Source: Octopus sinensis (Eukaryota). Taken from it: a DNA stretch of 64,000 bases. The position numbers were made by a program. Shown here one piece after another: positions 22,512 to 35,400 of the stretch. Numbering within the stretch: the first letter of the stretch is position 1; each line of letters begins with the position of its first letter. Location of the stretch: assembly GCF_006345805.1 (NCBI RefSeq), contig NC_043008.1, forward strand, positions 67,580,001-67,644,000. Reading direction: 5' to 3'.

Positions 22512-23790
22512 GACATTTTATGTCTCTTTTTTAGACCTGTTATTCATTTATATAATAATGGCAGGCAGAAGAATACCGGATCAGAATTTCTACCGAACCA
22601 ACTGGAATGAAGTAAGGATCCTAACACAATTCAAAATGTTCTTGATATTTTTTACATTACTATTTCTCTATTTCTATTTGTCACTCGTCTGACATTTTTC
22701 TCTGGAAGAGAAGGTGTGGCTGTGTGGTAAGAAGCTTGCTTCCCACCTACATGGTTCCAGGTTCAGTCCCACTGCAAGGCACCTTGGGCAAGCATCTTGT
22801 CTGTTTATATGTGTGTGCATCTTTGTGTTTGTGTTTGTCCTTCACCACTGTTTGACAACTGGTGCCGGTGTGTTTCTGTCCCCATAACTTAGTGGTTGAG
22901 CAAAAGTGACTGATTGAATGAACACCAGGCTTAAAAGAAAAATACGTATTAGGGGTAATTCATTTGACTAAAAAATTCTTCAAGGCAGTGCCCCAGCATG
23001 GCTGCAGTCAAATGACTGAAACAAGTAATAGATGCAGGAGTGACAGTGTGGTTAAGAAGTTTTTGCTTTCACAAGTCTGTGGTCTTGGGTTCAGACCCAC
23101 TGCACAGCACCTTGGGCAGATATCTTCTATTATAGCCCCAAATCAACTTATGTCTTGTAAGTGGATTTGATAGATGAAACTTGAAAGATGTCTGTGTAGA
23201 TGTGGTTGTGTGATAAGAAACTTGCTTCCCAACCACATGGTTCTGGGTTCAGTCCCACTGCATGGTACTTTGGACAAGTGTCTTCTACTATAGCATTGGG
23301 CTGACCAAAGCCTTGTGAGTGTATTTGGTAGACAGAAACTGAAAGAAGCCTAACATATATGGCATCTGTGCTTGTGGAGTGCTAAGAGCACCATCCACGC
23401 GTGATCGTTGCCAGAGCAGCTAACTGGCTTCCATGCCAGTGACACATAAAAAGCACCACTTGAGTGTGATAGTTACCAGCGTCACCTTACTGGCACTTGG
23501 CCGGTATCACGAGAAAAAACATTTGAGTGAGGTCGTTGCCAGTGCTGCTGGACTGACTCCTGTGTAGGTGGCACGTAAAAAGCACCATTTGAGCATGGCC
23601 GTTGCTAGTACCGCCTGACTGATCCTCATGCCGGTAGCACATAAAAGCACCCACTACACTCTTGGAGTGGTTGGTATTAGGAAGGGCATCCAGCTGTAGA
23701 AACTCTGCCAGATCAGATTGGAGTCTGGTGCAGCCATCTGGTTTGCCAGTCCTCAGTCAAATCGTCCAACCCATGGAAAGCGGACGTTAA

Positions 23791-23823
<33 letters not shown>

Positions 23824-32355: not shown

Positions 32356-32407
<52 letters not shown>

Positions 32408-35400
32408 TAATAATCCTTTCTACTATATGTACAAGATCTGGAATTAATAATAATGCCCTGATGCAGTACTGGACAGTGGCTCTCAAGGCTTTTGATCTTA
32501 ACTGATTGGAAGTGCAATCATGTACATTGTTTTGTCTTGGTGTATAAGATGGGCTACAGCAAATATTCTGTTCAATATCACAGATTTGCTTATTAGTTGC
32601 TTCACCTTAACCAGTTGAGTATGTCCCTTAGTGGCTGATGATATGTGCATCTCTTATCATGAGCAGAAGTAGTGGGGGAGCAATTTTATAGGGTTTGAAT
32701 AATTCACCACTGGTAACATGGATACTTCATTCCTCATCCTAAAATAACCCTTATTCAGGGACATTTTGAGCAGGATGAGCTACTTGACATGAAGAAAATT
32801 CTAACTGGACCCCCACCTGCAAGGTTTTGGGCTGTTCATCTTGATTTGAGGTCATTGTGTCATGCACATATGGTTGTGATGCATGTGCCTGGTGTACCCT
32901 TATCAGATGGGTAGTCATGATTGGTATGTTGGGCTCTCTCACTCAATAATAATGTTAATAATTACAATAATTTCTGTTTTCTAGGTGGCAAGAACGTTAT
33001 CAAGAAACGGATAGCAGGCAATGATTACTGCGAGTTACTTGTAGTCAACAAAATAGATTTGGAAAAAGCACTGGATATTGATATGGAGGTAGGTGTATGA
33101 AACTTTAAGATGCTTTCATTGAGATTTTGTCATAGTATTTAAACAACCATCCATCATCATCATCGTCATCGTTTAACGTCCATTTTCCATGCTAGCATGG
33201 GTTGGACGGTTTGACTAGGGTCTGGGAAGCCAGAAGGCTGTGCCAGGCTCCAGTCTGATCTGGCAGTGTTTCTACAGCTGGATGCCCTTCCTAATGCCAA
33301 CCACTCCGTGAGTGTAGTGGGTGCTTTTTACATGCCACCAGCACAGGAGCCAGAGGAGGCTGGCAAACGGCCACAATCAGTTGGTGCTTTTTACTTGTCA
33401 CTGACATGAACGCCAGTCAGGCGGTGCTGGCATCAGCCATGTTCAGATGGTGCTTTTTACCTGCCACCAGCACAGGTATCATAAGTACAATTTCCATATG
33501 ATTTTTGTTTTGATGTTGATGTTGACGTACTTGATTCAATAGGTCTCCTAAACAACCAAGCAAATCAGTCTGCCACTTAATCAATCTGGTTGCTTACCTA
33601 CCTGTCTGTATATTAGTATTATTATTAATATCATTATTAAGGTGGTTGGTAGGCAGAATCACAGCGTGTTGGATAAATGGTTTAGTGACATATTGTTTGC
33701 CTCTTTGCCTTCTGAGTTCAAATACCACTGAGGTTGACTTTGTCTTTCATCCTTTCAGGGTCAATGAAAGAAGTACCAGTTGAGCACTGAGGTCAATGTA
33801 ATCAACTTGCCTCCCGCCCCCACCCCCACAAAAAGTTTCAGGCCTTGTGGCTATATTAGAAAGGATTATTATTATTTGTCTTTTTCTTTAATGAACAGGA
33901 CTTCAAAGGTGATGTTATAATGACTCGAATGGACAGAGCCTTGTTGTTTACTTCTGTGAAAAATGATGAAGACATGAAAGATGTCGCTGAATGTATTGTC
34001 CGCGAATGTTCACAGCAAAAGAACCAAATACCACCAGAATGTCCGTAGACTCAGCTTGGAGAGATTTTCAACATTTTGGTTAACTTCCAGATAGCATTTA
34101 ATGATTTTCAGAAGTCACTACAACAATAGCAACAATAACCAGAATGGTGATAGTGTCATATATTTTACTTTGCGAGGTCCATGGAGAGAGAGAGCTTTTT
34201 TAAGTTCACTAAATTGAACTGGTCCAATATAATTAATAATTCATGTTCCAATTCGTCCTTTACTAGGATTTGAACATGGAAACATGGCCCATCTAACTAG
34301 ACATCATAAACAATTAGTTTAATACTTCTCTAATCACAACAATTAATGATGATTATACTGATAATAAATATGAATAATAAGAATATTCCTAAAGATAATT
34401 ATGAGGCTAATGATTATGCTGATGATGAATATGCTGCAGATAATGACAATCCAAATAATGAATATGCTAATGATAAATGTATTTCTCATGATTATGCTGA
34501 TGATAATGATGAAAAAATTTAATGATAAAGTCTTAAGTTTGTTTTAGAATTCAATAAAGTTTTAAAATTGTTCCTCTTCTTCTTCTTGCTGCCTCATCCA
34601 ACAATACTCACCCTTATGCAAATAACATGATCCTTCATTCCTCCAAAACTTTGCCCAACTATCCATCATGCAGCCAAGACAGCCTAGACACCGCATGTCA
34701 AACCTGTATTACTTTTATAAATGGTGGTAATGAGAACATCCTACAATGCAGCTTTTTCTCACAAAATTGCAGGCCTTGGCTTAAATTCATAAAAGTGCAA
34801 TTAATTAGCAGAAATGAAACAAGAAGAAGATTGTTTTCCAACCATGTAGTTCTGGGTTCAATCCCACTGTGTGGCACGTTGGGCAAGAGTCCCCTACTAT
34901 AGCCTCAAACCTACCAAAGCCTTGTGAGTGGATTTCATAGACAGAAACTGAAAGAAACTCATTGCATACATACAAACATACATAAACATACACACACACA
35001 CATATATATGAGCGTTATACTAATACATCTGTTTGTTTTGTACACCATCTGTCTTCGTCTTTTGTTTTTTCGTGAACTCTCCCCCTAATATATATATATA
35101 TTTAAATATAGAGATACACAAAGCCTAATTAATAATAAATTAGATCTTAGAGTGTTATGTGTTCATAGGGCTGCCCGTACATTTAAATACTTTAGAAGCA
35201 GATAATAATAAGTATACCATACTGCACTTTGGTAGTAGGAGTTATACAGGGTATCATATCATTCATAGCCTACTCTCAATTATCTTGAAATTTATTCAAT
35301 AATGCTTTCTAATAACCCTTAATCCCTTTGATCTATAAAATTTCAATAATTGTATTATATATTTACCCCTTCGGTATTGGGAATCACTTCCCTCGTTGTA

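Follow-up and report, generated by a model that had tools for sequence, protein, structure and literature searches.

The locus lies in a 64-kb window of Octopus sinensis DNA (the whole stretch that was analysed) and is confirmed as a real six-exon gene for a fast-evolved UreG relative, at positions 22558-34048 of the plus strand. All its splice junctions are GT-AG and phase-consistent, and the exons total 675 nt, or 224 codons and a stop. The exons and introns are as follows.

22558-22611, plus strand: exon 1, with ATG start, 18 codons, the end FYRTNWNE and donor gtaagg; a His-rich stretch is absent
28420-28541, plus strand: exon 2, with acceptor tttcag, donor gtgagt and last codon cut after 2 bases; carries GPVGSGKT and the start of switch I, VVTNDFYS
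29330-29426, plus strand: exon 3, with acceptor ttcag and donor gtaatg; carries the remainder of switch I, then VTEGCPL as the altered metal motif
31476-31623, plus strand: exon 4, with acceptor atatag behind a T-run, donor gtttga and last codon cut after 1 base; carries switch II, ESAGDCL
32985-33088, plus strand: exon 5, with acceptor ttctag and donor gtaggt; carries the rebuilt loop KNVIKKRIAG and G4, NKID
33899-34048, plus strand: exon 6, with acceptor aacag and stop TAG; carries the C-terminal third, the group-specific motif VIMTRMDR(A/G)LLFTS and a C-terminal Cys-Pro
within 22612-33898, plus strand: five introns of 5808, 788, 2049, 1361 and 810 nt, with SINE-like interspersed repeats and microsatellites

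At the stop trinucleotide frequency of 0.0618 over 22000-34600, 224 open codons are expected by chance with a probability of about 6e-7. A tblastn search of the whole window with the Argonauta hians protein P0001 gives exactly six collinear matches, which fall on the six exons with identities of 61, 88, 62, 92, 77 and 72% (exons 1 to 6) and E-values from 0.008 down to 3e-24. The match at exon 1 corresponds to P0001 residues 1-18. Splice sites and matches together bear out the stop-free 224-residue frame of six GT-AG, phase-consistent exons that a preliminary description of this DNA had proposed. The same search finds no second copy of the gene in the 64-kb window, and tRNA and Rfam scans of the window give no match. 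No part of it resembles human sequence.

Four proteins among 28 candidates match at E<=0.01: P0001 (A. hians), P0002, P0003 and the fragment P0004. P0001 has 221 amino acids, is annotated solely as "uncharacterized protein", matches the exons in order, and is 62-63% identical to P0002 and P0003. The group stands apart in database searches: in an exhaustive HMMER search P0001 reaches 434.8 bits and the representative ranked after it 202 bits, and the best 120 rows of a word-index search place the group at 435-477 bits, followed by 228 bits. Among the matches listed in the word-index search, the group is 42-48% identical to animal UreGs. The three full-length relatives have 116 invariant columns, including G1, ESAGDCL and N-K-x-D-L, and these are concentrated in the motifs of the GTPase and in others that are new and peculiar to the group (ESAGDCL, IRKRI and VIMTRMDRGLLFTS). 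Judged from these sequences, the locus appears to be an intact gene of an expressed type, common to A. hians and other database relatives.

The gene could instead be a relic that drifts to loss under relaxed selection and has no function after the loss of urease. Its stem in the UreG tree is very long, many once-invariant residues are lost, and the rate within the group is still raised, with 63% identity between P0001 and P0003 against 72-81% for canonical UreG among mollusc classes. The six-exon frame is nevertheless intact with good splice sites, and the relatives are full-length and open at 63-78% identity and carry the same unusual replacements. The 116 invariant columns cluster in the GTPase and group-specific motifs, and at 17 once-invariant positions every row shows one and the same new residue. 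We regard a relic as very improbable, and the earlier view of an intact, non-decaying animal gene of UreG type holds.

The protein is a UreG derivative, within the G3E family and SIMIBI class, and solved UreG structures are what it matches best in both sequence and fold. Scanned singly, exon 2 matches both Pfam cobW (PF02492; 8.7e-8, 32.4 bits against a cut-off of 20.7) and NCBIfam ureG (2e-8, 34.3 bits, profile positions 3-39), the latter model is also matched by exon 3 (0.039, 13.8 bits, positions 43-69) and exon 4 (2.1e-9, 37.5 bits, positions 77-123), and exons 5 and 6 have no Pfam or NCBIfam match. Exon-wise scans are too weak alone, and the family is settled by the full-length database relatives. 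With the UreG equivalog TIGR00101, P0001, P0002 and P0003 score 137.9, 152.4 and 153.6 bits, under the cut-off of 204.2; the Aplysia and chiton controls score 261.6 and 264.3 bits. A profile search of the PDB gives H. pylori UreG (4hi0_E, 4.2e-42) and K. pneumoniae UreG (5xkt_A, 2.3e-38), with weaker matches to HypB (6.4e-11) and MMAA (1.3e-7). Foldseek with the AlphaFold model of P0003 (pLDDT 80.8, pTM 0.82) returns the same two structures as best matches (5xkt_A 2.3e-17, 4hi0_E 4.1e-16; TM 0.86-0.87 on target). By both searches the closest solved relative and fold is UreG, rather than HypB, MeaB or CobW. Confidence in the P0003 model is lowest in the rebuilt regions, where block mean pLDDT is 62-68 (residues 81-100), 50 (121-130) and 69-70 (141-160). 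HypB membership is ruled out, since the relatives score 46.4-57.7 bits with the HypB model TIGR00073, under its cut-off of 121.2. Animals are not known to have a [NiFe] hydrogenase pathway.

A tree of 38 rows places the group as one clade (100/99) inside the animal UreG clade (99/94), where its neighbours, with weak support (86/76), are gastropod and Patella UreGs. The group stem measures 7 and the median end branch 0.28, a ratio of about 25 in which the stem is saturated and poorly estimated. Bacterial origin or contamination is ruled out by the spliceosomal introns and by this place within the animal clade, apart from the bacterial rows.

The motifs of the family and their replacements are read in the gene as follows.

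28444-28467, plus strand: P-loop GPVGSGKT, exon 2
29403-29411, plus strand: VTEGCPL, with Cys-Pro-Leu codons TGT CCA TTG, exon 3
junction of exons 3 and 4, plus strand: EVMNK then N, by direct reading
31545-31565, plus strand: ESAGDCL, exon 4; ESAG at 31545-31556, new Cys codon TGT at 31560-31562
32990-33019, plus strand: KNVIKKRIAG, exon 5, which replaces DKIPRKGGPG
33047-33058, plus strand: NKID, exon 5

Every sequence statement of the preliminary description holds at the place it gave. The gene keeps the P-loop, the switch II ExxG glutamate, NKxD and, from the metal motif, Cys-Pro, and it has lost the histidine of Cys-Pro-His, ESGGDNL, the DKIPRKGGPG loop and the His-rich N-terminus. The Walker A pattern GxxGxGK[ST] of the G3E family is present as GPVGSGKT, and switch II ExxG, with its Mg-binding glutamate, and NKxD, for guanine specificity (definitions as given in PMC3792862), are present as ESAG and NKID. 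The Cys-Pro-His of UreG reads CPL in the window and CPA, CPM and CPM in P0001 to P0003, and the switch II sequence ESGGDNL reads ESAGDCL in the window and in all four relatives. Of 321 stored UreG-type proteins, 310 have His68 and 309 have Asn103; Cys at position 103 is found in four of the 321, which are exactly the four database relatives, and the window shares it. Every row of the group has I, R and I where canonical UreG has P129, G132 and G133. An assembly error at the Leu codon, an objection that had been foreseen, was checked and is ruled out, as the histidine is absent from the three full-length relatives too (Ala, Met, Met), and A-to-I editing cannot alter TTG because the codon has no adenosine. 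The new Cys and His that had been pointed out in GDCLAAH fare differently: the Cys is present in the window and all four relatives, and the His is not conserved, being Tyr in one relative.

Column by column, 102 positions are near-invariant in UreG (at least 95% in 42 canonical UreGs). All four group rows keep 45 of these, 25 are kept in some rows, 17 have changed to one fixed other residue and 15 to varying residues, and thus 57 of 102 are altered in at least one row. Exon 1 and canonical mollusc UreGs have in common a YRTDW-type motif before the G domain, and the group has a conserved C-terminal Cys that is absent from the canonical pattern. These column and residue counts agree with the earlier claim that the GTPase core is conserved and that the metal and partner regions are rebuilt. 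Eleven further UreG-like rows among the stored proteins also have no Cys-Pro-His (P0136, P0176, P0189, P0200, P0207, P0212, P0215, P0241, P0252, P0255 and P0259); several look truncated or frameshifted, and Cys103 occurs in none of them.

The missing His-rich extension was likewise described correctly. Ahead of the P-loop the window protein has 26 residues, one of them His, and the group has 24-27, with 0-1 His; in seven canonical eukaryotic UreGs this segment is 62-86 residues long and holds 7-18 His. No His-rich upstream exon was found in the window, where the sole matches to the canonical His-rich part are translations of CA-type microsatellites elsewhere. A hidden His-rich first exon is ruled out by these matches and by the relatives, which have the same start point.

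The preliminary description had suggested a neofunctionalised, possibly urease-independent paralog; as an extra copy, such a gene would stand alongside a canonical Cys-Pro-His UreG at another locus. We searched with a profile of seven canonical mollusc UreGs, whose best 120 rows reach down to 412 bits and hold named proteins of 23 mollusc species, followed by rows from other phyla, from fungi and from protists. Neither protein search has a canonical UreG of a named cephalopod among the matches listed; in the canonical-profile search, 52 of the best 120 rows carry no organism (42 without a name and 10 named without an organism), and a canonical cephalopod UreG could sit there or further down the ranking. 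That both protein searches give the best 120 rows leaves room for a paralog, as do the 52 rows, and a single copy in the window says nothing about the remaining genome. Against it, those 23 named mollusc species include no cephalopod in the best 120 rows, though A. hians proteins are in the database, and the group branches within mollusc UreGs as an orthologue would (weak support, 86/76). An altered orthologue is favoured because canonical UreG from named cephalopods is absent among the matches listed. An extra paralog therefore seems improbable, and the gene is probably the strongly altered sole UreG-type orthologue in these animals.

Published work on UreG and related proteins indicates what the replaced residues do. 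In PMC3792862, the C66A and H68A variants of UreG fail in GTP/nickel dimerisation and have reduced nickel binding, K. aerogenes UreG with the matching changes no longer supports urease maturation, and ESGGDNL is termed "totally invariant". Asn103 of H. pylori UreG hydrogen-bonds the motif histidine (Fig. S8 legend, where it is printed "His66"; PMC3792862), so two contacting residues are both replaced here. In the sequence the metal motif keeps Cys-Pro, is without His, and is accompanied by a new Cys in switch II. The surface that contacts UreF also appears to be rebuilt, going by text of PMC3792862 that places the UreF-contacting residues beside both switches and the metal motif.

These changes need not mean that urease was abandoned. 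The protein could still be a working urease chaperone in which Asn103-to-Cys offsets the lost His68 and nickel is handed on via co-evolved UreF and UreD. It is seemingly the only UreG-type protein of named cephalopods among the matches listed, it keeps Cys-Pro and the GTPase motifs, the replaced His and Asn touch each other and show the pattern of a compensating pair (PMC3792862), and both residues stay in the interface of a predicted dimer (0.52 against 0.01, which may be memory of solved dimers). Yet H68A alone stops GTP/nickel dimerisation and its K. aerogenes equivalent stops urease maturation, the His-rich N-terminus is gone (0-1 His against 7-18), and the 57 changed columns of 102 include ones near the switches and metal motif, the UreF contact area as placed in PMC3792862. 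Nor would a retained urease role account for a stem about 25 times as long as the median end branch when canonical UreG is 72-81% identical across mollusc classes. We consider a urease chaperone rather doubtful.

The dimer itself was predicted for P0003 with two GTP and two Mg, and scores 0.52 against 0.01 for the best of three controls; this score may reflect memory because UreG dimers are already solved (4HI0, 5XKT). The mark used for a dimer is reached by 21 of 30 solved same-chain pairs and none of 23 solved single chains and, in eukaryotes, by 17 of 29 pairs and none of 30 single chains, with only one of seven pairs that have no older solved relative. The predictor ran without the alignment of this analysis; its runs agree in at least 98% of contacts with a partner pLDDT of at least 84. 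Residues 83-88, with Cys-Pro-Met, and 119-125, which read AGDCLAS, are part of the predicted interface. The prediction may be taken as likeness to the UreG dimer and not as evidence of binding.

The explanation that we favour, with a confidence just past the midpoint, is a lineage-specific UreG descendant that has become a repurposed, still dimerising G3E GTPase with a putative cysteine-only metal site. The parts for GTP and Mg binding (P-loop, ExxG glutamate and NKxD) are retained, and the nucleotide-sandwich dimer of UreG would still form. Its interface would present cysteines only, with each chain contributing Cys66 and the new Cys103 (H. pylori numbering), in place of the square-planar Cys2His2 nickel site. 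The protein would then be a GTP-switched carrier, or a sensor, for a metal that favours thiols, zinc being the plainest guess, or for another cofactor, and its client would be something other than canonically matured urease. A burst of change along the stem would fit release from the constraint of UreF, UreD and urease, followed by a new constraint. A bolder and more tentative proposal is that cephalopods lost urease and rebuilt UreG into a GTP-gated dimer whose all-cysteine site would be formed by Cys66 and Cys103 of each chain, perhaps with help from the C-terminal Cys that the group conserves. The cargo of that site would be zinc, copper(I) or a bridging iron-sulfur cluster, delivered to a non-urease client.

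Our literature search found nothing on urease, UreG or LOC115218132 in cephalopods; a single statement in PMC8777255 credits marine invertebrates with a urease. Few metallochaperones are as rigidly conserved as UreG, and Cys-Pro-His and ESGGDNL are described as invariant (PMC3792862). This lineage rewrote both motifs together, at two touching residues, and then kept the outcome. It offers a natural experiment on the re-ligation of a GTP-switched metal site, on the basis of G3E nickel selectivity, and on the fate of an accessory factor once its enzyme is lost or changed. An octopod "uncharacterized protein" of the RefSeq type gains a name and a testable idea. If it is true that urease was lost and UreG rebuilt, this would be the first animal G3E metallochaperone with both metal and client changed.

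Three known systems can be compared with this gene. Canonical UreG (TIGR00101; 4HI0 and 5XKT; Aplysia californica P0012 and Liolophura sinensis P0063) shares with the group the P-loop, ExxG, NKxD, Cys-Pro and the YRTDW-type motif, and residues 3-191 of H. pylori UreG align to the group without gaps bar one position. The group differs in that it has no motif His, has ESAGDCL for ESGGDNL, is without the His-rich N-terminus, has a conserved C-terminal Cys, and has a loop (K/R)-x-(V/L)-I-(K/R)-K-R-I where canonical UreG has DKIPRKGG. HypB, of the same fold family, has a G-domain site CHX30-34C in which Cys-His and a switch II Cys bind Ni or Zn at the dimer interface (PMC13202556). Both HypB and this gene pair the first Cys with a switch II Cys, and the spacing here, 36 residues, may recall that of HypB, but no His follows the first Cys. 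The likeness would be analogy rather than a shared site, because in the profile alignment the new Cys stands two columns before the switch II Cys of HypB. Methanogen UreG-like HypB homologues, kept without urease and described as of unknown function in PMC13202556, are a precedent for a UreG-type G3E protein in a urease-less organism; they differ in being archaeal and in retaining a metal motif of the UreG type, and they presumably share no descent with this animal lineage.

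The UreG-like GTPase gene occupies positions 22558-34048 on the forward strand and is comprised of six exons, read from the sequence as follows.

22558-22611, +, exon 1 (E1)
28420-28541, +, exon 2 (E2)
29330-29426, +, exon 3 (E3)
31476-31623, +, exon 4 (E4)
32985-33088, +, exon 5 (E5)
33899-34048, +, exon 6 (E6)

Each intron runs from GT to an AG that follows a pyrimidine-rich stretch, and the frame is preserved across the split codons AC/T and G/GT (n = 2). The coding length is 675 nt, that is, 224 codons followed by TAG. Stop trinucleotides make up 6.2% of the gene region, where an open path this long has a chance probability of about 6e-7, and the window sequence contains no N. 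The six exons and the motifs quoted in the preliminary description were borne out: EVMNK/N, ESAGDCL, KNVIKKRIAG and NKID are each present in the exons, and the leucine of the metal motif is encoded by TTG at 29409-29411 (E3). A tblastn search of the whole window with P0001, a 221-residue protein of the octopod Argonauta hians, gave six collinear matches that coincide with E1-E6 (61, 88, 62, 92, 77 and 72% identity). The gene model is thus independently confirmed, start and stop codons included; the same search found no second copy in the window. A (TC)n run (22480-22508) lies about 50 nt 5' of the start codon, and intron 3 carries a long (ATT/ATC)n microsatellite (29763-29941).

The window outside this gene is mostly mobile-element debris, of which the recognizable elements are these.

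36781-41402, +, nearly whole non-LTR retrotransposon (ORF and domain matches in shifted frames)
36781-38132, +, its Lys-rich ORF with a CCHC-like knuckle
38178-39074, +, its Exo_endo_phos domain (7.7e-10)
38998-40296, +, its RVT_1 domain (1.4e-30)
40212-41402, +, its zf-RVT domain (1.6e-8)
13868-14743, -, Mariner-type transposase remnant (Transposase_1, 2.8e-20 on 13868-14392)
about 10613-11334, second, more decayed Mariner-type remnant (no Pfam match)
47116-49200, +, LTR-retroelement pol fragments (RVT_1 and Integrase_H2C2)
47513-47914, +, RVT_1 of this pol (7.3e-15)
48760-49200, +, Integrase_H2C2 of this pol (9.2e-13)

By eye, a truncated second copy of the 3' part of the non-LTR element lies at about 51858-52601. 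Within the introns and just outside the gene (22037-34971) lie numerous SINE-like interspersed repeats in either orientation (for example 22712-22798, 23198-23284, 24278-24364 and 34807-34893), together with a 200-nt inverted pair (22037-22236 and 31777-31976, 87% complementarity). No tRNA gene or Rfam match was found in the window. None of its sequence resembles human DNA, and its character is that of an octopod-like invertebrate. No other urease-pathway gene was seen in the window, in scans that could miss short exons.

The gene derives from UreG. Scored one at a time against the NCBIfam ureG model, E2 matched profile positions 3-39 (E-value 2e-8), E3 positions 43-69 (0.039) and E4 positions 77-123 (2.1e-9). 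With E4 alone as the query against longer proteins, four of 28 candidates passed E<=0.01: P0001, P0002 (223 aa), P0003 (226 aa) and P0004. P0001, annotated as 'uncharacterized protein LOC115218132', is 92% identical over E4. P0004 (source ena) is a 139-aa fragment that enters from a run of Phe codons, crosses the exon-4 equivalent and runs out after ...VIDVAG; its borders suggest the same exon-4 limits in another genome. A profile of P0001-P0003 (A1) matched the solved UreG structures of Helicobacter pylori (4hi0_E, 4.2e-42) and Klebsiella pneumoniae (5xkt_A, 2.3e-38) far more strongly than HypB (6.4e-11) or MMAA (1.3e-7), and its alignment with UreG over residues 3-191 has one gap, of a single residue. 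An AlphaFold model of P0003 (pLDDT 80.8, pTM 0.82; 47 aligned sequences) retrieved 5xkt_A and 4hi0_E as the best Foldseek matches, followed by HypB. On the UreG equivalog model P0001-P0003 score 137.9-153.6 bits, under the cut-off of 204.2, whereas the canonical controls from Aplysia and a chiton reach 261.6 and 264.3 bits.

The odd residues are not peculiar to the window. The preliminary description had reported loss of the Cys-Pro-His histidine, and this holds: the window reads Cys-Pro-Leu, the full-length relatives have Ala, Met and Met after Cys-Pro, none has His, and all relatives share ESAGDCL. The unusual residues are therefore a property of the lineage. An assembly error at TTG 29409-29411 is ruled out as their source, since the relatives also lack the histidine, and RNA editing could not restore it because the codon contains no A. 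P0001 is three residues shorter than the window protein and P0003 right after Cys-Pro (CPARTNN-DVNL), at the E3/E4 junction, which is either a real deletion or another splice site predicted in the annotation.

To see which positions survived, the three relatives and the six window exons, each exon entered as a row of its own, were aligned with 42 canonical UreGs. Canonical UreG shows conservation of 95% or more in 102 columns; in the four group rows (the window protein and P0001-P0003), 45 of these are kept in all four rows, 25 in some rows, 17 are swapped for one fixed new residue and 15 for varying residues. With H. pylori numbering derived from the A1-UreG alignment, the kept positions include the P-loop, switch I TND, Cys66-Pro67, Glu98, Ser99, Gly101, Asp102, Lys131 and NKxD, and the fixed new residues include Gly64Glu, Gly100Ala, Asn103Cys, Pro129Ile, Gly132Arg and Gly133Ile. 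The comparison upholds the earlier view of a preserved GTPase core with remodelled metal- and partner-binding regions. The His-rich N-terminus is indeed missing: 24-27 residues with 0-1 His precede the P-loop in the group, compared with 62-86 residues and 7-18 His in canonical eukaryotic UreGs. Among 321 UreG-type proteins compared, His68 occurs in 310 and Asn103 in 309, while Cys103 occurs in four, exactly the relatives P0001-P0004. Cys103 is also absent from five other UreG-like proteins that lack Cys-Pro-His (P0176, P0215, P0200, P0212 and P0252) and have no relation to the cephalopod type; two of them, P0176 (697 aa) and P0215 (313 aa), read Trp-Gly/Ser-Arg in place of the motif.

Plain decay of the gene, to which we assign very little probability, would account for so many lost columns. 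The group also has motifs of its own (IRKRI, VIMTRMDRGLLFTS and a C-terminal Cys), whose strong conservation among its members speaks for constraint rather than decay. The C-terminal stretch with this Cys lies at 34028-34045 in the window; the endings PPECP, PPQCP and SQCFF occur among the window protein and P0001-P0003, and canonical UreGs are without the Cys. The relatives also carry an N-terminal Cys (position 3 in P0001), which the window start MAGRRIPDQNF lacks. Both could be extra metal ligands.

Descent was traced with two profiles. With A1 as query, a word-index search scored 8000 candidates, of which 6377 passed E<=0.001; in the best 120 listed, the relatives P0001-P0003 stand at 435-477 bits and the next match at 228. 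That match opens an uninterrupted run, among those listed, of canonical animal UreGs that are 40-50% identical; its sources include molluscs, annelids, a brachiopod, chelicerates, tardigrades, cnidarians, echinoderms, hemichordates and amphioxus. HMMER, run exhaustively over 1.84 billion representatives (2671 matches at E<=0.001), shows the same gap, from 434.8 to 202 bits. In an IQ-TREE tree of 38 rows, with oomycete and bacterial sequences outside the animal clade, the relatives form a single clade (support 100/99) inside the animals (99/94), where UreGs of Patella and of gastropods are its weakly supported neighbours (86/76). The stem of the clade measures 7 and the median end branch 0.28; the value of 7 is saturated and means only 'very long'. 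A long branch is expected to drift towards the outgroup and this one does not, so the plain reading of the tree is descent from a molluscan UreG. The second profile, A2, was built from seven canonical mollusc UreGs (72-81% mutual identity). All 8000 candidates passed 1e-20. Named rows among the best 120 listed represent 23 mollusc species alongside many other animals, and the list then passes to fungal and protist proteins at 412 bits. None of these 120 is a canonical UreG assigned to a named cephalopod, although the database does contain Argonauta proteins. We therefore read the gene as an altered orthologue rather than an extra copy; with 42 of the rows unnamed and 10 more without an organism, this is good evidence, not proof. 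The proposal that the gene is a neofunctionalised paralog, which would sit beside a canonical UreG, fared less well than the claims of UreG descent and remodelling made with it, and we regard it as improbable. A literature search turned up no publication about the gene, nor any about cephalopod urease; public annotation predicts it as a protein without a name, and it is undescribed.

The gene encodes a G3E GTPase that descends from UreG, is intact and conserved, and lacks the canonical nickel ligands. In PMC3792862, one nickel is held at the UreG dimer interface by Cys66 and His68 of both chains; C66A and H68A proteins are monomeric despite GTP and nickel and bind less nickel, and the equivalent changes in K. 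aerogenes abolish urease maturation. The paper also calls ESGGDNL 'totally invariant', places UreF-contacting residues beside switch I, switch II and the metal motif, and in the Fig. S8 legend describes a hydrogen bond between Asn103 and the motif histidine (printed 'His66'). Other sources put the Cys-Pro-His site where the nickel tunnel through UreF and UreD opens (PMC10121161) and give His68 a role in nickel uptake from UreE (bioRxiv 10.64898/2025.12.08.692910). From these roles we infer that the canonical nickel site cannot exist in the group protein, and that two residues in contact in UreG, His68 and Asn103, were replaced together, one by cysteine. The chief rival takes this exchange as compensation: urease and its helpers would persist and have co-evolved, with Asn103Cys making up for the lost histidine. 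We consider that possible but doubtful.

A dimer of P0003 with two GTP and two Mg, predicted without use of the alignment made here, scored 0.52, and the best of three controls scored 0.01. In a calibration that contained no small molecules, the dimer mark was reached by 21 of 30 solved one-chain pairs and 0 of 23 solved single chains; among eukaryotes, 17 of 29 pairs and 0 of 30 single chains attained it, but just 1 of the 7 pairs without an older solved relative. The runs agreed in at least 98% of contacts, with partner pLDDT of at least 84. The predicted interface takes in residues 83-88 (the Cys-Pro-Met stretch) and 119-125 (AGDCLAS), so both cysteines would face the partner chain. Because UreG dimers are already solved (4HI0, 5XKT), the pass may merely echo those known structures, and it shows likeness, not self-binding. 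On balance we lean towards a repurposed protein in which a GTP-dependent dimer would unite Cys66 and Cys103 of two chains in a thiolate-only site. Such a site could serve as a switchable carrier or sensor of a metal other than square-planar nickel, zinc being the simplest guess. The client would not be a urease matured the usual way, and on the lineage stem the constraint from urease, UreF and UreD would have been released before a new one set in. The gene offers a clean natural case in which the 'invariant' metal site of a metallochaperone has been rewritten; its interest is real, not sweeping, and the site is open to testing by ordinary biochemistry.

UreG-like proteins are also present in methanogens without urease, with function unknown according to PMC13202556. 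That paper gives the HypB site as CH-X30-34-C, which binds either nickel or zinc where the two chains of the dimer meet. The window protein likewise has two cysteines, its Cys66 and Cys103 equivalents, 36 residues apart compared with the X30-34 of HypB, but in the A1 profile alignment its second cysteine stands two columns ahead of that of HypB.
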